A DNA stretch of 64,000 nucleotides from Candidatus Omnitrophota bacterium (GTDB lineage: Bacteria; Omnitrophota; Omnitrophia; Omnitrophales; Aquincolibacteriaceae), in assembly GCA_022709525.1 (NCBI GenBank), contig JAKLIQ010000004.1, positions 9,260 through 73,259 of the forward strand, written 5' to 3'. The notes under the pieces are model-generated. The model was not told the origin of the DNA, did not search any database, and saw only the letters and a list, made by a program, of their open reading frames with translations. How positions within the stretch are numbered: position 1 is the stretch's first letter; each line of letters opens with the position of its first letter. Made by a program: the position numbers and the translations under genes. Shown here piece by piece: positions 30,027 to 50,079 of this stretch.

Positions 30027-30192
30027 TGCGTCCCGCCTCGCTGGGGCGGGAGAAACGCTGACGAAGAATCCTGAGAAATTTTGCGAGTTTGGAGTCAATC
30101 GGCAAAAAAAACAAGAATGGTTAAATCCGTTTTTTCCGTTGAAATCCCTTGGCGAGCAGTTTATGATGTGCGCTCTTCCGGCGACTTTTCAT

Positions 30193-30266
30193 GGGCAGTT
30201 AGTTCAGTTGGTTAGAACGCTTCCTTGACATGGAAGAGGTCAGAGGTTCGACTCCTCTACTGCCCA
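30193..30266 (+). tRNA. tRNA-Val (anticodon GAC); no encoded CCA
   Basis: Acceptor GGGCAGT/ACTGCCC, D-arm, anticodon stem CTTCC/GGAAG with loop TTGACAT, and T-arm AGAGG-TTCGACT-CCTCT. Confidence 0.9.
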
Positions 30267-30299
30267 GATTCTCAAAAAGACCCAGGCCTTTTTATCCCT

Positions 30300-30701
30300 A
30301 TGGAACCGAACAAAAAAGATTTTTTGACCTTTGAGCTTCCGCCGCTCTTGTGGATGGGGGTCATCTTCTGTCTTTCGTCGATCCCCGGGTGGTATTTTCC
30401 GCCGAACCAGCTCTTTCACCAGGCCGCCCATTTCCTTGAATACTCCGTTTTCGGGATCCTGCTGGCGCGCGGGCTTGCGCACCTGAAAATAAAACTGAAC
30501 GCGGCCTCTCTTCTCTTTCTATCCCTCGGCCTCATCACGCTTTTCGCCGTCTTTGACGAATGGCGTCAGGGTTTTGTTCCCGGCCGCATGAGCAATCCCA
30601 AAACCGTATTCTTCGACGCGCTCTACGCGCTCGCCGGCGTTTTTATTTACGAAGAGTTCGCCTTTAAGCTTTTCAAGAAAAAAGACAAAACTCAGCCGTA
30701 A
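30300..30701 (+). CDS. VanZ-like family membrane protein
   Basis: The track ORF begins inside the tRNA. The realistic start is ATG 30300 (MEPNKKDF...). It has 3-4 TM segments and the VanZ-like pattern AVFDEWRQGFVPGR. Confidence 0.6.
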   Translation: MEPNKKDFLTFELPPLLWMGVIFCLSSIPGWYFPPNQLFHQAAHFLEYSVFGILLARGLAHLKIKLNAASLLFLSLGLITLFAVFDEWRQGFVPGRMSNPKTVFFDALYALAGVFIYEEFAFKLFKKKDKTQP

Positions 30702-39766: not shown

Positions 39767-42700
39767 ATGCATAAGGGCCTTAGGGCGGTCTCAATAGCCA
39801 CCTTGGTGTGCTTTTTGACGACGCAGTGTGCCTGGGGCGCTCCCGGGGCTTCCATCGAATTAGCTGGGGCGCGCGAGTTGCCCGGCTATCTAAGCATCGA
39901 TGTTCCGGCCGAATTCGGGACCGTTGATGCGCTCTACGAAGCTCCTTCTTCCGCCAACCCTCAATTCGTCCTTCATATCCAGAACGCCCACGCGAATTAT
40001 CAGGCCCAGATGAAGATCAAGCAGCTGCTGGGCTACATGAATAAAAAATACGGCTTCAAAACTATTTTCGTGGAAGGCGCCTCCGAAAAACTCGATCCGG
40101 ATTATCTGCGTCTTTTCCCCGACGAAGAACGCAACCTCAAGCTTTGCGATGAGCTCGCCAAACAGGGAGAGCTTACCGGCGCGGAACTTTATCTGATGGA
40201 GGCGGACAAAGATATCGAAGCGCTCGGCATCGAACAAGCCGCGCTTTATAGATCGAATTATGAAGCGCTCAAAAAAGTATTCGGCGCTGAAGCCGATGTG
40301 AATCGATTTTTCAAAGGGTTTGACGGAAAACTCGACCGCATTGCTTCAAAAACCTTTACGCCCGAAACCCGCGAACTGATCGCGGATTGGAAGCGATTCG
40401 AGCAGGGCCGCCGGGAATTCATGCCGTTTGTCAAATCTCTCGCCCAGAAATCCAAGAAGATCCTGAACGTCGATCTTGAAAGCCTCTTTGCGCAAGTTGG
40501 CTGGCCGCAGATCACGCGCCTGTTGGTGGTCCAGCAGATGGAAAAAGAGCTGGACCGGGCCAAAGGTGTCGCCGAAAAAGAGACGCTTCTTAAAGCCCTT
40601 CGCGAGAAGGGGGCTTCCAAAGAGCTTATCGCGGCGGTCGAGAATTTCAGCGAAGGCTCCATCAGCGTCGGAAAGTCCACGCAGGAAGTTTCGCCGCGCG
40701 AGGTGCTCGAGCGGCTTGCTTCGGAAATGGGCCCCAAAGGCTTTAAATTCAGCGATTATCCCGCGTTCAGTCTTTATGCCGGTTACGTGACCCTCCGTTT
40801 CGAGCTCGATGCAAAAGTCCTCTTCGAAGAGATCGAATACCTTTTTACGCAGATACTCGATACTCTGGCGACAGAGCCTCAGCAAAAAACGCTTTTGGCT
40901 CTTTACCGGGATGGCGAGCTTTTGCGTAAATTGCTCCATCTTGAACTCAACCGGACGCAGTGGCGTGAAGTATCCACGGCTCAGGACCGGATCGCGGTTC
41001 CGTCACTTGTTGCACGCCTCAAAGCGGCGGTGCAGACCACAGACCGCAGACCACAGACTACTGACCAAAGCAAAAAAGATTCTGAGCTCCAGTCTCCAGT
41101 CTCCAGTCTCCAGTCTGTTGGCGATGTCATGCCTCCCGCATTCGCCAAAAAAATGGGTGAGATCTTTAACGCCGGAATCGAGTTCTATGGGTTTGCCCGT
41201 CAGCGCGAAAGTGTTTTCTATAAAGAGATGCAGACGGCGATGAGCGAGCGGAGGATCACGAAAGCCGTTCTTATCACCGGCGGTTTCCACACCGACGGCA
41301 TGAGCGACCTTTTCCGTGAGAACGCCGTCAGTTACGGCATCGTCACCCCGCGTCTTTCCGAAAGATCCAACGAAGGCCTCTATCGCCGCATTATGTTCCA
41401 GGATGAACATGTGCCTTTTAATCTGTCTTATTTAGAAGCGGCTCCTCATTTAGCCGACCTTGCCACGATTGAAAATCAGGGCCTTGTTCCGCTAGATAGT
41501 CTCAAGCCGATTCTTAAACAATTTATCGATGTCGGAAATTTCGGAAATCTTAACGAAGCTGCTATCGCAGCGTTTAATGCCATTACTACCGGTCCAAGAT
41601 ATAACGGCGTCAAAGTCACGCTCGAGCTGCGAGGGGATTATGTCAAAGTGAATGTCGTGGAAAAAGCGATCGAAGGTGGCGTTGCAATTGAATTCGGGTC
41701 GATGGCCCAAATGGCAACTCCGGAAGTTGCTGTTGCAAGGCAAGTGGCGCCTACTACACGTGCTTCTTCGCTCTGGAATTCATTGATGATCGGTTTGAGC
41801 TTATTTCTCGCAGCTCTCAATGGGTATGCGCAGGATGCCGGAGAATTTGTGGAATCATTTCTTTTGAATGGCCGGCCAGCGGCTCTTTATATTGTTAATA
41901 ATGATTACACCGGTGTTGAGAAAACGACGAATTTCTATAAATCCTGGGTAGCGACAACCCCAAAAACTTTAATGAAGGGCGATGCTGCCGTAGCGCTTGT
42001 TGAAGGAAATGGAATACGTTTAGGTTCAACCGGAGAGGTGGCTGTTGCAAGCGCCAAAACATCTGAGCCCGGATCTGACACGCAGAAGATGACGGCGCCC
42101 CTTGTGACCGAAACGGCGCTTTCTACGATTGAGATTGATACTACGCAAATTCCTGACTATATCGCAAATGAGATAGTTGGGAGGACCGGGAGCAACGTTG
42201 TTCAAATTTTTGACCCGAAGACAGGATCTTTTACGCCAGTCGCATTAACTCCTAAGTCTAGAGGCAAGAGAGGTCGCTCCGAGCTAAGAAAGATCATCCC
42301 CGTTGTGATCGCTGCTGCGCTTACCGCTAGCGCAGTTTTGGCTCAAGAATTAGCCAAAACTGCCACAGCAAAAGAAACGCAAAAGAAAGAATTTGTAGCC
42401 CCAGAAGTTAAAGAGCAGCCGATTCCCGTTGCTGCTGACGGAACGGTTAAGGTTCCTCAAGATCCAGAAAAAAATACGGATTATTATTTTATAGTGGGTG
42501 ATACCAAATTTGTTTTGTATTTAAATGATCCCAAACAGATCATCATTCATCCGGAAAGCGCCCCGGAAGATAATATGGGCTTTCCATACGAAAGCATTCG
42601 CATTTCAAAAAAGGATGTCGTAGGTTTAAAAGTTTCAACTGATGTAAGAACCGGACATCTTTTTGGTATTGGAAATGGGACCTTTAATATCGTTGTTCCC

Positions 42701-45700
42701 CTTTTAACCGATGGAACGACAGGTAGGCCCAAGGAAGCTCCCGCAACACGTCGTAAATTTGGAAGCGGCTATGCCGCTGCTAGGATGACGATGTTTCAGA
42801 CTTTGTTTTTGGTCGGGCTAATTAATTTCATGTCGGCAATAACAGTCAAAGCCCAAGATGCCGGAGAGTTTTTGGAGACTTTTCTTATGAATGGTAAGCC
42901 GAGAGCTGCTTTTATAGTCAATAGAGATTACACTCGCGTTGAATCAACTACGAACTACGTCTCATGGCAGGGCCAAACTCCTAATTATCCTTTGATGGCG
43001 GGGCAAGGCGGAGTTGTGCCTATCTCGGGAAATGCAATACGTTTGGCTTCAACCAGTGAGGTAGCAGCTGCAAAGTCGGCATCTCGACTTGCTACCGATT
43101 CAACTTCAAAAGCGATATTTGATCCCACTCGAGTTCCTGCCGACATCAGAGATAAATTTCTTGGAGCTGGCGCAACCGTTGTGCAAATTTTTGATGAAAA
43201 CACCGGAACATTTACGCCGATATCCTTGGTTCCAGTAGCCCCTGAAGAAGCAGCTGCTCCGGAAGCTGCCACGGCAGAGCCCGGCCTTGAAACACCCGTA
43301 GAGCCGGTCGGAATGGATGCCGAAAGGATTAGCACAGCTATTGATGAGATGGCTGTAGAAGAAATGCCTAGCAATATTACTTTGTCCGCCGAAGGCGATG
43401 CTTTAAGCGTTAATGTGTCTGTCCCCACTTCGGATTTTGGAAATCCTGTGATCCGGCCGCTACTGATTTCGCCGGTGCTTGCATTTGCCGCTTATGAAGG
43501 CGCGCTTTACGTGGTAGAGAGAAACGGGGTTTTTGACAAGTTTACTTCAGAAAACGTTTTGGTCGAACCTGTCAGCGAAGAGACGCCCATTACAGATGGA
43601 CGCTTTCAAATTCCTTTCGAAGAACTTCCTGAAGATCTTCAAAAGGAATGGTCCGGTTTTCGCTCCGAGGCGCGAGATGAAATTTCTCAATTAATCAAAG
43701 ATTCTGAAGCTTTCTTGGATTCGGAAGAGATAGAATCTCTTTTAGAACTTTGGGTCGAAACGGGTGACATCAGCAAGGTGTTAGAGTCATTACAAAAAAT
43801 GAAAGAAGATCCTGTGCCAGCCGTAACAAGTTTTGTGCCTATTTTGGCGGGGGTGGCGGGGAGTCTGGTCGCGGCCTTCATGTTGTTCCATCTTATATTT
43901 TCTGGTGCAATGCTTCATTCTGCTATATCAAGTCTAGGAACCACCGGACCAATAATGTTTGTTGGCGTGACGTCGATATTTGCAGGAGTGTGGCTGGGGG
44001 CAAAAGCCGCCGTAGAAACAATGGATAATAATACTCAGATCAGGGAACTAAGTGAAAAAATCCGGGAAACGCATCGCTTCGAAAAAGATGTCCCATTCGC
44101 GAATCTTAAACCGATATCCGGGGATACTCGTGAGATATTGAGAGATAAGCTAAACAAAATCAATGTGGTTATACGCGAACTTCTTGAAAAATATGAATCA
44201 AGGGATAATCTTCCAGAGGTTGAACGTCAATCCGTTTTGCCGGAATTGGCGCAAGCCCGAAACATTCACACTTCGATCTTGGAAGCTCTCAGCCGCTCCG
44301 AGGCGAGGGAATTGCCGGAAGAAACGCGGTCGCAGGTAACGCAAGGGTTAAAAGAACGTTCGCGAAGCACTGTCTTATATGTAACCCAAGCATGGCTAAA
44401 TGCTTCACAAGGGTTAGTGGAGTTTCTTCGAAGCACTGCGCAGTATACGGTTCGGGGCCCATGGGTCGTGATGTCTGTGTTGGCTGTTCTCGGCGCCGTC
44501 TTTATAGGCCCCGCATTTTTACTGATGGCGCTTCCCGTCTTGGTAGCAAGTATGTTGGCTCCGATTGCCGATCGTCTAACGCCTCAGCGAGCGCCTGCCG
44601 TCGTTCTCGATGAAGGGAATACCGTGCCGGCAACAACCTTTGCTCAGCTGGGATCGGCGGCCCAGACTATTATGCAGCCCATTTTTGGGTCAATGGCCAG
44701 GATGCCGGAGATCGTTGCAAGCCGAGAAGCTGTATGGAACGCGGTTAGCCGGCTTTATAATACGAATGAAAGGCAATATCCCTCCATCGAGGTGGTTGTG
44801 GTCAATGAAGGCATTCCTGATTTTAAGCAACAATATGCCGCAGGCCTATTTAGTGAACTAGAAAAACGCTTAGCGGAATTAGAAAACCAATCGCCGAAAA
44901 TTTACTCGATCCAATTTTTACCTGATGTCGACGGAAAAGCGTCGATCCGGGTTAACGTTTCTCCCCGCGCCGAGGCGAGATTGACCGATATGGACAAGGC
45001 CACTCTCAATATAGCGCTAGGTCGCGTTGCCACGGATAGAAACTTTAGCCGTTCTCTTCAACAAAAGGCCGGCGAATTAGCAAAAAAGCTGGATTCACCG
45101 GAGGGCATTTCAGAAGCCGAGTTAGCTGCCCAAATCGAAGGATTGCTTGCAACGATGCCGCGTGGTTTTACCTCAGATAATCAAATGCGACTACCCAACC
45201 CATGGTATGACCTGTTATCCAACGTCTTGGGCAAAATTGATCCCACAGCTACGGATCGTTTAATTCGTCCTTTTGCGATCGAACCCGGTCCGACTATGCC
45301 CGCCCTCGCCGAGGCGAGAGAGGTGCTTACAGCGGCTGATCTGCGGATGCTTTATATGAGCCGCGGCGGTGAACAGGATTATCGAGATGGAGTTGCTAAG
45401 TTTCATGATAGAGCTGATGCAGTAACGGGGCTTATTCCTCAGGGGGATACGGTTGCGGAACTTTCAAAGTTTACTGTTTACCCGGAAATGCAGTCGCTTT
45501 TCATCAACAAGATGAGATTGATTTTGGGGATGCTGCCCGGCGGCCTCGATGTTAGCGGCAGAAAGATTCTTTCGATTGGTCTCGGGGAAGGATCTTTTGA
45601 GAAAGCTATAAAAGATGAATTTCAGGCGCAGATATCAGGTTTTGAAATCTCAAAGGAGCTCGCCGCGCGCGCGCGTACAAAAGGCATCCAGGTTTCGGAA

Positions 45701-48403
45701 GAGCCCGCGGAGATCGGCATGCCAAAGTTGCCGGCCGCGTCGCAAGATGTTGTTTTGATCTCTGAGGCGATCGGATATTTGGATCTATCCGTAGTTTTCG
45801 CTGAAGCATATCGCGTTTTAAAACCGGGAGGGATGATCTTGATAGTACAATACCCCGTAACGTCCCAAAATGCGGGGAATATTTCGCCGACAGGGTTTAT
45901 TGACTACCCCTTCGACGATACGGTGACAGAAAATGGAGCAGTGGTCCAAGGGTACAAAATGGACCTAACAAACCTTCGTTTTGAGAACCCGAGTACTATC
46001 GCTCTAACAAGCCAGGAAGTTAAGAAGAAGGAGGAAGATGAAGGAATAACTTCGGATTGGTTTAAATATTTTAAGCGTGACGTTGTGGTTAATTTTCATT
46101 CTATGCAAAAGCCCGCCCGCGCCGAGGCGAGGACAGTATCCCCGCAACTGCTGGTGGTTGCGGCAAACGAGCGGCTCAGAAACGGAAATGTACCGCTTGC
46201 CGAACAAATGCCGTGGCTTACTGAGGAAGTGGGGTTTGGGAACAGATCTCAAGACCAACAGGAAGCAATATTAACTCGGATATTGTGGCTTAGAGAAAGA
46301 TCGGAGAATATCGAGAAGGTTCTTGCAAAACAGGATACGCCTCCTTCCGAAAGAGATTCTTTAACGCGTCTTTTTCAGAATTTTCAAAGCGAGCAAGTTT
46401 CCCTTGAATCCCGTCTTCCTCAGGGAGTGCTGGCCGCGCTTAATGTTGTTCGCGCCGAGGCGAGAATTCTTTCTGTAAAAGAAATTAATGAGGCAATCGA
46501 AGAGCACACGAGGAAAGTTCGCATTTTAACAATCGCTCCAAATGGGTCCAAAGTTTATACGGAGCCTTTTGAGGTTTCTTCGGCGGCAGCAGGAGCAACA
46601 GAAGGAACAAAAGACTTAATCCTATTTCGTTTAGCAAAATATGGTCGAGAGACCGGTGAAATTCGAAGTTTTCCTTCCGGAGAAATTTTGGGCATTGTGA
46701 GCGGATGGACCATGGAGACGCTGCGTGTTTATGATATTTCGCAGAAGCTTTTGTCGGAAAATCCTGAGTCGGAACTTTATATTGAAACCTACAAGCCGGT
46801 AAACGGGGGATATTTTGCAGATGTGAGATCGGGCAAGGTTAGATCGCTCGAATTTAATCCTGACAGTGGCTGGCTGACCGTTATTTGGGCCGATGGAGAT
46901 AAAAGTTTTTATCATGATACAGACCAACCTATTGCCGACACCGTGAGAACGTTGCCCTCAACGCAGGTTCCGATTCGCGCCGGGGCGAGGGGGCAAGCGA
47001 TTATCCTTGACGAGGGAAATGCCATTACACCAGAAAGTTTAAAAGTCATTTTAGAAACGGCTGGAAGCAACAATGTTACCTTATCTCAAGGACAGGTTTC
47101 TTATTCAGCGCCTGCAACCTCAGTAAGGGCGCAGTTAGATTTATTGAAGCCAAAAGGTCCTTTGACGCAAGCGGAGGTCATCAAGCTTTTGAATCTTGCT
47201 TCGGCTCGCGCGGACTTTGGAGTGGATCGGCCAAGTTCTTTTCCCGCTGATCTGAGCCCCGCAGTTTTCCAGAGGAGGGCGCCGGTCGTTCTTGATCCGG
47301 CCAACATCACTTCAGCAACGAGTTTAAAAATTGTATTAGAGGCAGCAGGAAATGCAGATGTGACATTATCTCAAGGAGAAGTGTCCTATTCGGCGCCAGC
47401 AACCTCAGTTCGGGAGCAATTGGATTTATTGGGAGCAAAAGGCCCTCTAACGCAGGAACAGATAATTAAATTATGGAATCTCGCATCGCCCCGCGCCGAG
47501 GCGAGGTCGATCGTGCAAGAGCGGCAGGATCTTGAAAAAGAGGTAGAAAATATTTTGTCTCAGGAGTATCCCGAGGAACTTCAAAAACTAAAGGAAAAAG
47601 CTTTGGAATTCGGCCTCGGGTCGCTCGATGAGGTTTTTGCGTATATTACGATACCAAGCTCTGGGGAAATGACGGCCAGGGGAGTGGTGGATAATCTGTT
47701 ACGTCTTGTTCAGGCCAAGCCGGGTGAAGTCAATTGGAAACATTTCTTCGCTGCGGCAATAGCTGCTCTTAAAGGTAATCCAATGATGGCGGTGTCCGAT
47801 ACTCCCGGCGGCACTGTGATCATGCGGGCTGCGGCGTTTGATTCAGTTGAACTTGAAAGTATGGCAACACGCCTCGAGACGAACACAGAATTAGTGGAAG
47901 GATATGTCATTCCCAGCGATGGCTCCGGGATAGATCAAGATAAGATCAGAGCCGATATTAATCGCATCAAGAACACTTTTGATCATAAGGGCCGTAAGAT
48001 CGGCGATCGTCTCAATGTTCAATTTGAAAAAGCTTCCAAGCTTTCCGAAAAGGCTCGAGCTCAAGCCGCAGCCATCAAGCGCGCGAATTCCATGAAAGAA
48101 AATTTTGCTGTGGCATTCCTGGTTGAAGAAGGTATCCAGACTACGGGTCAGTTCAACGGCACGGTTCTGCGCACCCAAGAAAAAGCAGCGAGGCAGAATG
48201 CGCCCGTGCGCAGTTGGCTTGCTTCCATGGTCGCGTTGAACGGCGTCGATCAGGTGAACCAATTGTTATTTAAACAATTGAATGACAGAAATGTTCTTAA
48301 ACCGAAAGGCGATGGGTACGAGATCGATGAAGCTTTGCTCAGTGGCCTCGCCAAGCTCTGGTCGGATATCTTGACCCAAAAAGCCACTTCAATCGCAGCA
48401 TAA
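39767..48403 (+). CDS. Giant (2878 aa) secreted/membrane multidomain protein of unknown function. It has a signal peptide, a TraB/GumN/Tiki-like N-terminal region (inference), two sets of tandem internal repeat modules, two TM clusters, and an embedded class I SAM-dependent methyltransferase domain.
   Basis: Signal peptide MHKGLRAVSIATLVCFLTTQCAWGAP. HIQNAHANY...IFVEGASE and ...LITGGFHTDG resemble the TraB/Tiki GTxH...E...GxxH motifs. Module A is at nt ~41828-42250 and ~42850-43235 (AQDAGEF..SFL.NG.P...VVQIFD..TG.FTP). Module B is at nt ~46996-47210 and ~47282-47505 (..LDEGN.ITPESLK..LE.AG...VTLSQG.VSYSAPATSVR.QLDLL...GPLTQ), with a partial copy at ~44596. TM clusters are at nt ~43815-44020 and ~44455-44580. 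MTase motifs ILSIGLGEGSFE / DVVLISEAIGYL / LKPGGMILIV are at nt ~45480-45900. GC content of the gene is lower than in neighbouring genes. Confidence 0.8.
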   Translation: MHKGLRAVSIATLVCFLTTQCAWGAPGASIELAGARELPGYLSIDVPAEFGTVDALYEAPSSANPQFVLHIQNAHANYQAQMKIKQLLGYMNKKYGFKTIFVEGASEKLDPDYLRLFPDEERNLKLCDELAKQGELTGAELYLMEADKDIEALGIEQAALYRSNYEALKKVFGAEADVNRFFKGFDGKLDRIASKTFTPETRELIADWKRFEQGRREFMPFVKSLAQKSKKILNVDLESLFAQVGWPQITRLLVVQQMEKELDRAKGVAEKETLLKALREKGASKELIAAVENFSEGSISVGKSTQEVSPREVLERLASEMGPKGFKFSDYPAFSLYAGYVTLRFELDAKVLFEEIEYLFTQILDTLATEPQQKTLLALYRDGELLRKLLHLELNRTQWREVSTAQDRIAVPSLVARLKAAVQTTDRRPQTTDQSKKDSELQSPVSSLQSVGDVMPPAFAKKMGEIFNAGIEFYGFARQRESVFYKEMQTAMSERRITKAVLITGGFHTDGMSDLFRENAVSYGIVTPRLSERSNEGLYRRIMFQDEHVPFNLSYLEAAPHLADLATIENQGLVPLDSLKPILKQFIDVGNFGNLNEAAIAAFNAITTGPRYNGVKVTLELRGDYVKVNVVEKAIEGGVAIEFGSMAQMATPEVAVARQVAPTTRASSLWNSLMIGLSLFLAALNGYAQDAGEFVESFLLNGRPAALYIVNNDYTGVEKTTNFYKSWVATTPKTLMKGDAAVALVEGNGIRLGSTGEVAVASAKTSEPGSDTQKMTAPLVTETALSTIEIDTTQIPDYIANEIVGRTGSNVVQIFDPKTGSFTPVALTPKSRGKRGRSELRKIIPVVIAAALTASAVLAQELAKTATAKETQKKEFVAPEVKEQPIPVAADGTVKVPQDPEKNTDYYFIVGDTKFVLYLNDPKQIIIHPESAPEDNMGFPYESIRISKKDVVGLKVSTDVRTGHLFGIGNGTFNIVVPLLTDGTTGRPKEAPATRRKFGSGYAAARMTMFQTLFLVGLINFMSAITVKAQDAGEFLETFLMNGKPRAAFIVNRDYTRVESTTNYVSWQGQTPNYPLMAGQGGVVPISGNAIRLASTSEVAAAKSASRLATDSTSKAIFDPTRVPADIRDKFLGAGATVVQIFDENTGTFTPISLVPVAPEEAAAPEAATAEPGLETPVEPVGMDAERISTAIDEMAVEEMPSNITLSAEGDALSVNVSVPTSDFGNPVIRPLLISPVLAFAAYEGALYVVERNGVFDKFTSENVLVEPVSEETPITDGRFQIPFEELPEDLQKEWSGFRSEARDEISQLIKDSEAFLDSEEIESLLELWVETGDISKVLESLQKMKEDPVPAVTSFVPILAGVAGSLVAAFMLFHLIFSGAMLHSAISSLGTTGPIMFVGVTSIFAGVWLGAKAAVETMDNNTQIRELSEKIRETHRFEKDVPFANLKPISGDTREILRDKLNKINVVIRELLEKYESRDNLPEVERQSVLPELAQARNIHTSILEALSRSEARELPEETRSQVTQGLKERSRSTVLYVTQAWLNASQGLVEFLRSTAQYTVRGPWVVMSVLAVLGAVFIGPAFLLMALPVLVASMLAPIADRLTPQRAPAVVLDEGNTVPATTFAQLGSAAQTIMQPIFGSMARMPEIVASREAVWNAVSRLYNTNERQYPSIEVVVVNEGIPDFKQQYAAGLFSELEKRLAELENQSPKIYSIQFLPDVDGKASIRVNVSPRAEARLTDMDKATLNIALGRVATDRNFSRSLQQKAGELAKKLDSPEGISEAELAAQIEGLLATMPRGFTSDNQMRLPNPWYDLLSNVLGKIDPTATDRLIRPFAIEPGPTMPALAEAREVLTAADLRMLYMSRGGEQDYRDGVAKFHDRADAVTGLIPQGDTVAELSKFTVYPEMQSLFINKMRLILGMLPGGLDVSGRKILSIGLGEGSFEKAIKDEFQAQISGFEISKELAARARTKGIQVSEEPAEIGMPKLPAASQDVVLISEAIGYLDLSVVFAEAYRVLKPGGMILIVQYPVTSQNAGNISPTGFIDYPFDDTVTENGAVVQGYKMDLTNLRFENPSTIALTSQEVKKKEEDEGITSDWFKYFKRDVVVNFHSMQKPARAEARTVSPQLLVVAANERLRNGNVPLAEQMPWLTEEVGFGNRSQDQQEAILTRILWLRERSENIEKVLAKQDTPPSERDSLTRLFQNFQSEQVSLESRLPQGVLAALNVVRAEARILSVKEINEAIEEHTRKVRILTIAPNGSKVYTEPFEVSSAAAGATEGTKDLILFRLAKYGRETGEIRSFPSGEILGIVSGWTMETLRVYDISQKLLSENPESELYIETYKPVNGGYFADVRSGKVRSLEFNPDSGWLTVIWADGDKSFYHDTDQPIADTVRTLPSTQVPIRAGARGQAIILDEGNAITPESLKVILETAGSNNVTLSQGQVSYSAPATSVRAQLDLLKPKGPLTQAEVIKLLNLASARADFGVDRPSSFPADLSPAVFQRRAPVVLDPANITSATSLKIVLEAAGNADVTLSQGEVSYSAPATSVREQLDLLGAKGPLTQEQIIKLWNLASPRAEARSIVQERQDLEKEVENILSQEYPEELQKLKEKALEFGLGSLDEVFAYITIPSSGEMTARGVVDNLLRLVQAKPGEVNWKHFFAAAIAALKGNPMMAVSDTPGGTVIMRAAAFDSVELESMATRLETNTELVEGYVIPSDGSGIDQDKIRADINRIKNTFDHKGRKIGDRLNVQFEKASKLSEKARAQAAAIKRANSMKENFAVAFLVEEGIQTTGQFNGTVLRTQEKAARQNAPVRSWLASMVALNGVDQVNQLLFKQLNDRNVLKPKGDGYEIDEALLSGLAKLWSDILTQKATSIAA

Positions 48404-48414
48404 GGCTTGATTTC

Positions 48415-48456
48415 CAAAAAGAGGGGTATGGAGCTTTCCATACCCCTCTTTTTTGT
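48415..48456 (+). terminator. Intrinsic terminator after the giant gene
   Basis: AAAAAGAGGGGTATGG-AGCTTT-CCATACCCCTC followed by TTTTTTG. Confidence 0.85.
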
Positions 48457-48496
48457 TTAAAATCTCTCTTGTTCTCTTTCCATCTTCTGCCTCTCA

Positions 48497-48524
48497 CCCT
48501 TGTACACACCCGGTGTGTACATTG
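48497..48524. repeat. Degenerate REP copy (CCCTTGTACACACCCGGTGTGTACATTG)
   Basis: Same family as 33900, with 3 mismatches. Confidence 0.8.
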
Positions 48525-48585
48525 TCGATAAATATATAAAATATTTACTTTAAATAATAATCATGTAGACTGTCTCCGCCGATAC

Positions 48586-48611
48586 CGCGGACACACCCGG
48601 TGTGGACAGGG
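48586..48611. repeat. Degenerate REP copy (CGCGGACACACCCGGTGTGGACAGGG) immediately 5' of the RAYT gene
   Basis: Same family. Confidence 0.8.
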
Positions 48612-48630
48612 TTTGAAAGGAGGGGAGAGC

Positions 48631-49278
48631 ATGGGATATCGAAAGGTCGCGTTAAAGACCGGGTGTCTTCATCATGTTTTTTCGAGGAGCATTGCGGGAT
48701 TTGAGATTTTCCGCTTTCGTGAAGAATATCTGAGAATGATGGAGACTCTCAAATTTTATCAAGTCGACAGGAGTGGAATCCGCTTTTCGAGAAAAAGCGC
48801 CGCTGACATTCAAAATTCATCGCATCCTAAGCCGGAGTTTCCCCATGTCCGGCTTATTGCATATTGCATCATGTCTACTCATGTTCATTTTATGCTTGAA
48901 CAGGTTATGGATGACGGGATCTCGAAATTTATGCGGTTAGTTCTTAACAGCTACGCCCGATATTTTAATACGAAAAGTGGTCGAAAGGGGCCGCTCTGGG
49001 AGTCGAGATTTGAAAATCGCCTTATTGAAACGGATGAATATGCGCTTCATCTTTCTCGATATATTCATCTCAACCCAACTTCTGCGGGGCTTGTGACGCG
49101 TCCCGAGGATTGGGAATTCTCATCCTATCTCGAATATCTGGGGGAAAACTCCGGCTCCCCACTTTGTGAATTCAAAAACGTCGTTTCCCTTTCGCCGGAA
49201 CTCTATAGGAAATTCACGGAGGACCGAAGCGATTATCAACGCGCGCTGCAGATGCTCAAAGCCCATCTGATCGATTGA
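48631..49278 (+). mobile_element. REP-associated tyrosine transposase (RAYT; IS200/IS605-like HuH Y1 transposase). The longest ORF starts at 48613; ATG 48631 with RBS AGGAGGGGAG is the more likely start.
   Basis: HuH motif (MSTHVHFML), catalytic Tyr region (LSRYIHLNPTSAGLV), and about 215 aa. It is flanked on both sides by REP palindromes (48586-48611 and 49280-49306). Confidence 0.85.
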
Positions 49279-49279
49279 A

Positions 49280-49306
49280 CCCTGTACACACCGGGTGTGT
49301 ACAGGG
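49280..49306. repeat. REP element (full 27-mer, CCGGG-core orientation) immediately 3' of the RAYT gene
   Basis: CCCTGTACACACCGGGTGTGTACAGGG. Confidence 0.9.
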
Positions 49307-49329
49307 TGAAAAAGGGAAGGAGAGGGGCA

Positions 49330-49357
49330 TTGACACCCGGAGCCCGGGGAGTATAAT
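49330..49357 (+). promoter_or_regulatory. Near-consensus sigma70 promoter (TTGACA, 16-nt spacer, TATAAT)
   Basis: cATTGACAcccggagcccggggagTATAATacg. Confidence 0.6.
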
Positions 49358-49363
49358 ACGCCC

Positions 49364-49444
49364 ATGCGAGACTTACGGGTCTCGACTCACCTGCAGAGGT
49401 TCGTGGCCACCAGATCCCCACTCGGTCACGAACCTCTTTTTTTT
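49364..49444 (+). ncRNA. Candidate small RNA (~80 nt) running from the consensus promoter to an intrinsic terminator
   Basis: A 5' hairpin CGAGAC-TTACGG-GTCTCG, then a terminator GAGGTTCGTG...CACGAACCTC plus T8 at 49396-49444. No ORF. It lies between two REP copies. Confidence 0.45.
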
Positions 49445-49572
49445 CAGCCATGAGCCGTTTTTTGCGAATGGACTGATCCGCCACGCTTTATGGCGGATGC
49501 TCAAAATGAGCTTTTTATGCGAATGGACTGCATTGACTTTGGTTTGTAATTTAACGGTAGTCAAGACTGCCC

Positions 49573-49639
49573 CATCCCGCCTCTGTGACGGCGGGATGAT
49601 AAGAATTGGGACTGATCCCCGCCTACCGGCAGGCAGGCG
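49573..49639. repeat. Second repeat family, copy A: hairpin CATCCCGCCTCTG(TGAC)GGCGGGATG plus GCCTACCGGCAGGCAGGCG
   Basis: A related copy lies at 57761-57821. A TTGGGACTGATCCCCGCCTACC-like motif is also found at 57888-57907. Confidence 0.6.
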
Positions 49640-49649
49640 CCAAACAGCA

Positions 49650-49676
49650 CCCTGTACACACCCGGTGTGTACAGGG
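49650..49676. repeat. REP element (full 27-mer, CCCGG core)
   Basis: CCCTGTACACACCCGGTGTGTACAGGG. Confidence 0.9.
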
Positions 49677-49707
49677 TATATTAGACCGCAGGATGGGAGA
49701 GTGACCT

Positions 49708-50079
49708 ATGGAACCCGATAAAGACATACGATTTACCGAAAAAAAGGTCGATGAAAGCTGGAAAGAACAGGCGGAAAGCGTCAAGGCGAAAGCCGCCCCG
49801 CCGCCGTCCGCGGCTGGCGCCAAACCCAAAACGGTCGAAACTTCGAAAGCGTTTTTAAATCTTGTCCAGTCTCTTGGGTATCAGGCGCTGATGCATTTGG
49901 GCGAGATCCCGGATCCCATGACGCAGCAGCGTGAGGTCAATACCGACGCCGCAAAAGAAACGATCGATCTTCTGGCCATGCTCCGCGATAAAACCCAGGG
50001 CAACCTGAGCGATGAAGAGAAGAAGATCCTCGAAACGCTCCTGGCCCAACTGCAGATCAAATTTTCCCAAAGCGTATGA
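49708..50079 (+). CDS. DUF1844-family protein
   Basis: ...FLNLVQSLGYQALMHLGEIPDPMTQQREVNTDAAKETIDLLAMLRDKTQGNLSDEEKKILE... matches the DUF1844 pattern. Confidence 0.6.
   Translation: MEPDKDIRFTEKKVDESWKEQAESVKAKAAPPPSAAGAKPKTVETSKAFLNLVQSLGYQALMHLGEIPDPMTQQREVNTDAAKETIDLLAMLRDKTQGNLSDEEKKILETLLAQLQIKFSQSV

Follow-up and report, generated by a model that had tools for sequence, protein, structure and literature searches.

A giant gene with a repeated in-frame motif

The DNA analysed here, a stretch of 64,000 nucleotides from a Candidatus Omnitrophota bacterium (contig JAKLIQ010000004.1; the whole stretch is called the window below), carries a giant gene whose product of 2878 amino acids (aa) consists of a conserved N-terminal domain, variable cargo and a conserved C-terminal module, and within which a 14-nt motif, CGCGCCGAGGCGAG, recurs in frame (Table 1). 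The protein is identical to P0001 (HOW87447.1, from a Candidatus Omnitrophota metagenome-assembled genome, MAG), and a second, independently assembled copy (P0122) has the same 2878-aa architecture with 2 substitutions. The gene lies in a slot between thrS-infC-rplT-pheS-pheT-rarA-PilZ and (RAYT)-DUF1844-LPG_synthase-aroQ-accB-accC, where RAYT denotes a tyrosine transposase associated with repetitive extragenic palindromes (REP). The slot is the same in the related loci L001 and L002, yet the cargo is wholly different among the three genes. The N-terminal domain (~550 aa) is the sole part common to all homologues, at ~20% query coverage. The window gene carries its family signature, HIQNAHANY ... 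VEGA ... TGGFHTDG, and the residues that are invariant in alignment A1 include Q72, H75, E103 and H508. An AlphaFold2 model of this domain reached a pLDDT of 80. The giant gene has a G+C content of ~48% (0.47-0.51), compared with ~55% (0.54-0.58) in the flanking genes (region 39767-50000 against its flanks), and AGR makes up 32% of its Arg codons, compared with 11% in the other 42 open reading frames (ORFs) of the window. The low G+C and flat codon usage fit rapid turnover of the cargo or a foreign origin.

A pattern search of the 64 kb found four exact copies of CGCGCCGAGGCGAG and three copies with one mismatch, and none was present outside the giant gene, on either strand of the window, at up to one mismatch. 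By chance 0.08 copies would be expected, and 7 were reached in none of 100 dinucleotide shuffles, in agreement with a preliminary description of this DNA, which had held that such recurrence exceeds chance. Two further, diverged in-frame copies bring the total to nine, all on the + strand and in frame 0 of the ORF at 39767-48403. The preliminary description had listed six copies, in a single codon phase and with differing flanks. Phase and flanks were as it described, and its four exact copies and the one-mismatch copies at 44294 and 45305 were recovered, but it had missed the one-mismatch copy at 46976 and both diverged copies. It had also given the encoded peptide as (P)RAEAR throughout; RAEAR is encoded by the four exact copies only, and the others read RSEAR, LAEAR, RAGAR or RSELR. 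The nine peptides thus take the form R-S/A-E-A/L-R, with LAEAR and RAGAR as the two degenerate cases, and the codon form in the window gene is CGC-[G/T]CC-GAG-GCG-AG[A/G]. Pairwise identity was 84% over the 15-nt motif and 26-28%, the random level, over the 30-nt flanks. Tandem Repeats Finder showed no array at the sites, which speaks against a tandem-repeat origin of the copies.

When the pattern was relaxed to CGY-KCN-GAR-NNN-MGN, 7 matches lay in the giant gene, all in frame 0, and 1 per strand in the remaining 55 kb. The only other RSEVR in the window, in the mechanically called ORF at 30225-30701, was rejected as noncoding, as this ORF runs through the tRNA-Val gene at 30192-30267. Because the relaxed pattern is scarce outside the giant gene and the outlying RSEVR is a tRNA artefact, the window counts and codon usage reveal neither a motif that is frequent in all frames nor a RAEAR forced into these codons, the two outcomes that the preliminary description had named as fatal to its view.

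R-[S/A]-E-x-R is conserved across a family of giant proteins

The family was defined by proteins P0001-P0078 and loci L001-L082, and motifs were counted in 120 homologous proteins. The homologues are 1.6-5 kaa long and nearly all from Omnitrophota. With one genome per GTDB species, relatives of the N-terminal domain were found at 404 or more loci; a MAG often has several of these, in some cases arranged in tandem. Past this domain the Pfam content is unrelated and includes response regulators, TPR, kinases, HPr, CMP kinase, WD40, SecA and more. The 120 proteins contain 650 copies of the peptide R-[S/A]-E-x-R, compared with 18.6 in composition-preserving shuffles (~35-fold), and 92 of the proteins have at least one copy. 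Conservation is confined to the five motif residues. Position 2 is S in 78% and A in 22% of copies, the variable position is filled by V, A, M, L, S or T, and the median spacing between motifs is 222 aa. The density is 1.74 per 1000 aa in the giant ORFs and ~0.05 in neighbouring ordinary ORFs, once upstream tandem giants are set aside.

At the DNA level, 305 sites from 78 ORFs showed that codon positions 1 and 2 are essentially fixed and that position 3 varies: in the first Arg codon (R1) it is C in 50% and T in 30% of sites, in the Ser codon (S2) it is C, G or T, and in the Glu codon (E3) A and G occur at ~50:50. This pattern indicates that selection acts on the amino acids and not on a DNA word.

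In several MAGs, long motif-rich ORFs (>3000 aa, 3-10 separators) end directly upstream of the N-terminal domain of the next giant (Table 1), so family members can lie in tandem. At the other end of the proteins, a C-terminal module of ~300 aa, which opens at a separator and ends in ...ATS[IV]AA, is common to many homologues, the window gene included. Nearly all members (P0001, P0002, P0007, P0018, P0013, P0040, P0052, P0003) have an extreme C-terminus of the form ...A-[TV]-S-[IV]-A-A or a similar sequence ending in Ala-Ala, which resembles a degradation or sorting tag.

The motif marks the junctions between modules

The preliminary description had suggested that module boundaries be aligned with the motif, and the motif does mark them, as seen from alignment starts, repeat blocks and the C-terminal module. 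When the C-terminal module was aligned by BLASTP to P0008, P0009 and P0021, each alignment opened with the separator, in the query as well as in the homologue. Between homologues, 17% of high-scoring segment pairs (HSPs) start within 5 aa of a motif, compared with 3% for random positions. When cargo was compared between loci, a motif lay no more than 6 aa from the start in both partners for 22 of 71 HSPs, and for 0 of 71 at random positions. Matching cargo is often found at different ordinal positions, for example at aa 708 in L034 and aa 1314 in L035, which come from one MAG. Within genes, 19 of 41 repeat blocks start at the motif in both copies, and in P0036 a 69-aa unit beginning RSEARWGDV is repeated at least 7 times.

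The segments between motifs can be complete proteins. The 132-aa module between two RSEVR copies of P0062 is occupied by an entire HPr domain (profile positions 2-79 of 81), and in the window gene a full-size class I S-adenosylmethionine (SAM) methyltransferase is flanked by LAEAR (45305) and RAEAR (46118). Export signals also tend to follow the motif. A hydrophobic, signal-like segment follows it within 35 aa in 8.4% of cases, compared with 2.2% at random positions and 1.1% before the motif. Lipoboxes (...LVGLAGC, ...LALGC) and twin-arginine translocation (Tat) motifs of the RRxFL type (RSEAR-VLTRRGFLK in P0007, SRRSFLK in P0027) occur after the motif as well. The family thus shows several complete functional units in one ORF and a short conserved motif at the junctions, as polyproteins do. 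We are highly confident that R-[S/A]-E-x-R is a module separator that acts at the peptide level, is family-wide and is specific to junctions.

Several modules of the window gene merit separate description. By eye, the 113-aa module after copy 4 looks similar to the module that is duplicated in P0002. For cargo modules 6-8 (aa 2105-2590, 46079-47536), neither 1.84 billion cluster representatives nor JGI metagenome contigs yielded a homologue, and a word-indexed search of 5.8 billion proteins gave no match, not even to the protein from which the query was taken; on these searches they are ORFan cargo. A domain of ~140 aa is present in two copies (41750-42270 and 42740-43300), each after a signal-like hydrophobic segment (…AQDAGEF…) and without a separator. 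Module 8 (46976-47491) consists of two ~85-aa units in tandem. Where the second unit has ASPRAEAR, the first closes with ASARADFG (47207-47221, CGC GCG GAC TTT GGA), and this end looks like a decayed separator.

Codon choice at the separators and duplication of modules

In 200,000 simulations that drew codons for the nine peptides according to usage in the giant gene (CGC 24% of Arg, GCC 27% and GCG 28% of Ala, GAG 36% of Glu, with the AGR share given above), four or more identical 14-mers never arose (P<5e-6). The nucleotide identity is therefore higher than the peptide requires, as had been claimed in the preliminary description. Across the family, R1 is CGY in 79% and AGR in 6% of sites, compared with 43% and 25% for Arg in a non-motif R[SA]E context (chi-square p=2e-40); this and the following codon p-values are inflated because the sites are not phylogenetically independent. 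CGY for Arg in the same dipeptide context elsewhere amounts to 40-43%, and dipeptide or context effects were found insufficient, on this comparison, to cause the bias. S2 is TCC in 50% of sites and in 20-22% elsewhere. The last Arg (R5) shows the opposite trend (CGY 25%, CGR 36%, AGR 39%; p=8e-8), and the codon classes at R1 and R5 differ (p=4e-41). The codons favoured at R5 (AGR or CGG) are rare in the ordinary genes of the host, and the codons used there have a mean frequency of 0.163 against 0.236 expected (p=1e-15). In the clade of the window, AGR makes up 6-14% of Arg codons in ordinary genes and 55-90% at R5. From codon usage it is plausible that the rare R5 codons serve as a programmed ribosome slow-down at module ends.

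At separators conserved between homologues of at most 60% identity, R1 was CGY in 81%. The codon-class bias is thus the same at this distance, which indicates that it is maintained and not merely young. The exact codons at separators aligned between diverged homologues were conserved no better than flanking synonymous sites, and the nucleotide layer therefore consists of class bias plus recency, not of a fixed DNA word. Individual genes have their own codon dialects: the window gene and L001 use CGC-KCC-GAG-NNG-AGR, L026 uses CGC-TCC-GAA-NNN-CGG and L006 uses CGC-TCG-GAG.

Recent duplication was directly visible in L001, where two tandem 291-nt modules are 100% identical and their junction is the motif's shared GCCCGCGCCGA; a second module pair is identical at 323 of 336 positions. 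Duplication from motif to motif does occur, and the exact bases of the separator are therefore copied along. The preliminary description had offered recombination or duplication breakpoints as one reading of the repeat, and this is borne out in L001 and inferred for the window gene. We take the four exact 14-mers of the window to reflect class preference together with recent copy-paste, of which the copy-paste would apply to the window gene by analogy with its relative. That the DNA identity itself is a selected function seems improbable to us.

Proposed cleavage at the separator and alternative explanations

We read each giant ORF as a string of protein-sized modules, in which a conserved N-terminal domain is followed by fast-turnover cargo and a conserved C-terminal module. 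The cargo includes enzymes, regulators, many ORFans, and exported proteins that bring Sec, Tat or lipoprotein signals of their own. The 14-mer is the coding image of a five-residue separator, one at every junction, and we propose that the polyprotein would be cut at these separators, which would release modules bound for different places. The co-inherited N-terminal domain would be a candidate protease only. The extra nucleotide identity would come from the family-wide codon-class preference and from motif-to-motif gain and duplication of modules. That cytoplasmic enzymes and exported proteins occur together in one ORF would be understandable if the separators are where the chain is divided. 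Taken as a whole, this account (a family separator, an inferred cut site, and codon preference with copy-paste) is the best explanation we have and, on balance, somewhat probable. Its central element, that the motif is the cleavage site of a polyprotein, is put forward tentatively from sequence patterns, with a chance close to even.

Several observations weigh against this account. The N-terminal domain had no significant match among PDB folds and profiles and none to any peptidase, and only weak Pfam matches to Tiki/ChaN were seen, in 2 of 10 members (E=0.11). The AlphaFold2 model of the C-terminal module (pLDDT 73) shows a generic alpha/beta fold, with no significant match in the PDB. Signal-like starts are found in just 8-13% of modules. 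The 28 most distant N-domain homologues are without the motif, which therefore goes with one subfamily of the N-terminal domain, and no obvious substitute separator was seen in the 28-34 distant motif-less homologues, where RPExR occurs 4 times in P0030. On the nucleotide side, the inflated codon p-values and the drift of exact codons between diverged homologues also count against it.

The separator could also be a peptide that is never cut, such as a linker, docking or pause element by which modules fold or are recognised in turn within a chain that stays intact, for example as a membrane-anchored multi-enzyme scaffold. The junction evidence applies here too, a pause in translation at the end of each module would suit the rare Arg codons at R5, and long Omnitrophota proteins have been read as membrane-anchored multi-enzyme chains (bioRxiv 10.64898/2026.06.07.730766). 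However, internal Tat, lipobox and Sec signals after the motif could hardly function unless they had a free N-terminus or were targeted separately, and a strict R..E.R with S/A at position 2 and free flanks is more typical of a recognition site than of a passive linker; we regard an uncut chain as rather unlikely. The single codon phase of all copies also suits a joint for in-frame recombination at the DNA level, an in-frame cassette array whose peptide is a by-product or a second function; the conserved bases would then be selected because exchange between copies can swap, duplicate or delete entire modules and keep the reading frame. Tandem duplication from one motif to the next, in one case with 100% identical copies joined inside the motif, agrees with such a joint, as do motif-bounded homologous modules at different ordinal positions in different genes, complete cargo turnover between genes with ~70% identical N-domains, and the gene-specific dialects of the motif. 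Yet synonymous variation at fixed amino acids makes the peptide the primary target, and 14-15 bp is too short for efficient homologous recombination. Moreover, no associated site-specific recombinase was found and the adjacent RAYT has a different palindrome, synonymous sites change in old orthologous separators much as they do in the flanks, the architecture is the same in two independent assemblies, and selection for intact modules alone could confine duplications to motif boundaries. As the sole explanation we regard a recombination joint as quite unlikely. A combined role, in which the separator doubles as cut signal of an 'operon-in-one-ORF' polyprotein and as in-frame recombination joint and whole-protein cassettes are duplicated, lost and exchanged among the several paralogous giant genes of a genome, is also unlikely, if a little less so; if true, such a separator would be a protein-level analogue of the integron, and both the ORFan modules and the extreme turnover of cargo would be accounted for.

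Readings in which nucleic acid or translation initiation is the target fared worse. The preliminary description had offered, as one of two readings, a functional DNA or RNA site with the palindromic core CGCC-GA-GGCG; such a site would be a hairpin or bind a factor, in regulation or phase variation. The GC-rich 14-mer does stand out in a gene of lower G+C (48% vs 55%), with identity above the peptide requirement. The stem has just 4 bp on each side of a 2-nt loop, however, and is lost in the TCC (Ser) copies of the window gene and in the GTG, ATG and ACG (Val, Met, Thr) variants of its relatives, and variation at the family sites is synonymous. Folding of six sites gave z-scores of +0.4 to +1.0, and one of -0.9, relative to shuffles, an Rfam scan of 39-50 kb gave nothing relevant, and neither the opposite strand nor any other frame holds the motif. 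The proposal is thus largely refuted, and we give it very little weight. A phase- or antigenic-variation locus, also raised earlier, finds no support, on a sample of only two assemblies: the copies are direct repeats 0.3-1.4 kb apart, there is no invertase or other linked recombinase acting, and P0122 has the same architecture. We also give very little weight to the idea that GAGG(N)GAGG works as a Shine-Dalgarno (SD) sequence at internal ribosome-binding sites, from which modules would be translated separately. GAG-GTG-AGG does match 7 nt of the extended SD, ATG and GTG are the commonest codons at the variable position, and some modules have Met, Leu or Val codons directly past the motif. Start-like codons at +1 to +4, though, occur in 5-9% of sites per position, near background and without enrichment, many modules have no start codon before their signal peptide or domain (RSELRKIIPVV and the HPr module, for example), and the SD-like form is in the minority, with R5 being CGN in 61% and E3 GAA in 49% of sites. 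Chance or a general compositional or codon bias, for which nothing speaks but the GC-richness of the preferred codons, is refuted by the shuffle counts, codon simulations, context comparison and family density, and its probability is close to nil.

Relation to known systems

Omnitrophota are ultra-small, uncultured bacteria noted for enormous genes. Their long proteins of at least 10 kaa have been described, with C39 and S8 peptidase domains named as possible processors, and cleavage of these giants has been hypothesised with the cleavage points stated as unknown (West-Roberts et al. 2023, bioRxiv 10.1101/2023.11.21.568195; bioRxiv 10.64898/2026.06.07.730766). The giant or 'multi-enzyme' proteins of the phylum (including class 1 of 10.64898/2026.06.07.730766) resemble the present family in having long ORFs that tile unrelated Pfam domains, transmembrane segments and repeats. 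The family described here differs from the giants of at least 10 kaa in its size of 1.6-5 kaa and in having its own N- and C-terminal domains. Neither paper mentions the separator motif, and full-text searches for motif strings and for an Omnitrophota polyprotein or cleavage site found nothing in a searchable literature that is itself incomplete; within it, the motif appears to be undescribed. The separator offers concrete candidate cut points in hundreds of loci, which would be the first testable ones for these giants, and could be used to search metaproteomes for termini at the motif, to split the proteins in silico for structure prediction and to test junctions in vitro. It also exposes a gene organisation in which many complete proteins, exported ones too, are joined in a single ORF, whose locus is fixed and whose cassettes turn over rapidly.

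By lineage the closest relatives of this system are the Omnitrophota 'multi-enzyme' giants, and its closest functional analogue is a polyprotein with short conserved cleavage motifs. Polyproteins with short motifs include those cut at viral 3C/NIa-type sites and at furin-type R-x-K/R-R sites. They likewise have independent proteins in one ORF, a motif at the junctions and free flanks; here the gene is bacterial and chromosomal, cleavage is a proposal, the cargo is hypervariable between close relatives and there is an additional codon signature. A mitochondrial Arg5,6 tandem precursor is reported to be cut internally by the mitochondrial processing peptidase (PMC8734313). Integron cassette arrays (attC) share a fixed locus, interchangeable gene-sized units, short repeated bounds and content that varies between relatives. 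In the giant genes, by contrast, the units lie in frame in one ORF, the repeat is under peptide selection, and neither an integrase-like gene nor an attC-type structure is present; an integron-like cassette array was rejected for the window on these grounds, since the locus has no integrase and the sites are 15-nt coding motifs. Translational pause sites, with rare codons or SD-like sequences, are known at domain boundaries. The genome-rare AGR, often in G-AGG, at the module end is similar to these, but here it lies within a strict peptide motif. The opposite codon choice at the two Arg residues (CGY and rare AGR) may be a signal at the level of translation or DNA.

Table 1. Features of the giant gene, its surroundings and related loci. 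Coordinates refer to the window unless a locus is named.
Feature	Position	Strand	Remarks
Giant gene, 2878 aa	39767..48403	+	ORF list, translation; N-terminal domain, variable cargo, C-terminal module
N-terminal conserved domain, aa 1-554	39767..41428	+	Hydrophobic signal/anchor at N-terminus; alignment A1
Separator copy 1	42275..42289	+	RSELR (aa 837), CGC TCC GAG CTA AGA; 3 mismatches; followed by signal-peptide-like segment KIIPVVIAAALTASAVLAQE
Separator copy 2	43661..43675	+	RSEAR, CGC TCC GAG GCG CGA; 2 mismatches
Separator copy 3	44294..44308	+	RSEAR, CGC TCC GAG GCG AGG; one mismatch
Separator copy 4	44966..44980	+	RAEAR, exact 14-mer; opens 113-aa module
Separator copy 5	45305..45319	+	LAEAR, CTC GCC GAG GCG AGA; one mismatch, first Arg lost
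SAM-methyltransferase module, 271 aa	45305-46117	+	Pfam Methyltransf_11 at aa 1935-2026
Separator copy 6	46118..46132	+	RAEAR, exact 14-mer
Separator copy 7	46451..46465	+	RAEAR, exact 14-mer
Separator copy 8	46976..46990	+	RAGAR, CGC GCC GGG GCG AGG; one mismatch; opens two-unit module
Separator copy 9	47492..47506	+	RAEAR, exact 14-mer; opens C-terminal module
C-terminal conserved module, aa 2576-2878	47492..48400	+	Ends ...KATSIAA; opens at last separator; alignment A2
Perfect 17-bp hairpin and T-run	48416..48458	+	13 nt past stop codon; likely intrinsic terminator of the giant gene
RAYT-like Y1 (IS200-type) transposase	48613-49278	+	NCBIfam REP_Tyr_transpos 64 bits, below the 80-bit cutoff; directly downstream of giant gene
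REP-like palindrome, 21 nt, TGTACACACC-N-GGTGTGTACA	33903, 36995, 37027, 48501, 48588, 49283, 49653		7 copies; flanks the RAYT-like gene
Upstream motif-rich ORF, L021	3-9824
Upstream motif-rich ORF, L034	1-9786
Upstream motif-rich ORF, L041	2-9499
Upstream motif-rich ORF, L076	1-9387

Neighbouring and minor features

The RAYT-like gene directly downstream and a short GC-rich repeat in the window recall REP/RAYT systems. The 14-mer was rejected as the REP of this gene: it is solely intragenic, lies in frame and is no real palindrome, and the RAYT-like gene is flanked by the unrelated palindrome listed in Table 1, whose copies in the window are apparently all intergenic. Homologous Y1 genes stand beside giant genes in just 5 loci (L002/L013, L004, L029, L077).

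Elsewhere in the window, the tRNA-Val gene at 30192-30267 has the anticodon GAC, and the ORF called at 30225-30701 begins within it; the true start of the gene there is probably an ATG near 30303.

Within the coding sequence of the N-terminal domain, positions 41032-41116 (aa ~422-450) form an imperfect palindrome with 7-nt periodic arms (CAGACCA x5 ... CTCCAGT x4.3), which encodes a low-confidence insert, RRPQTTDQSKKDSELQSPVSSLQS. No further copy of the palindrome was found in the window or in the 82 loci. A peptide much like RRPQTTDQSKKDSELQSPVSSLQS is present at the same place in P0002 and at another place (aa ~155-180) in the N-domain of P0027, and other repeated low-complexity inserts occur in P0003, P0065 and P0067. 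By analogy with the Rickettsia palindromic elements (RPEs), 41032-41116 may be an in-frame palindromic insertion element.

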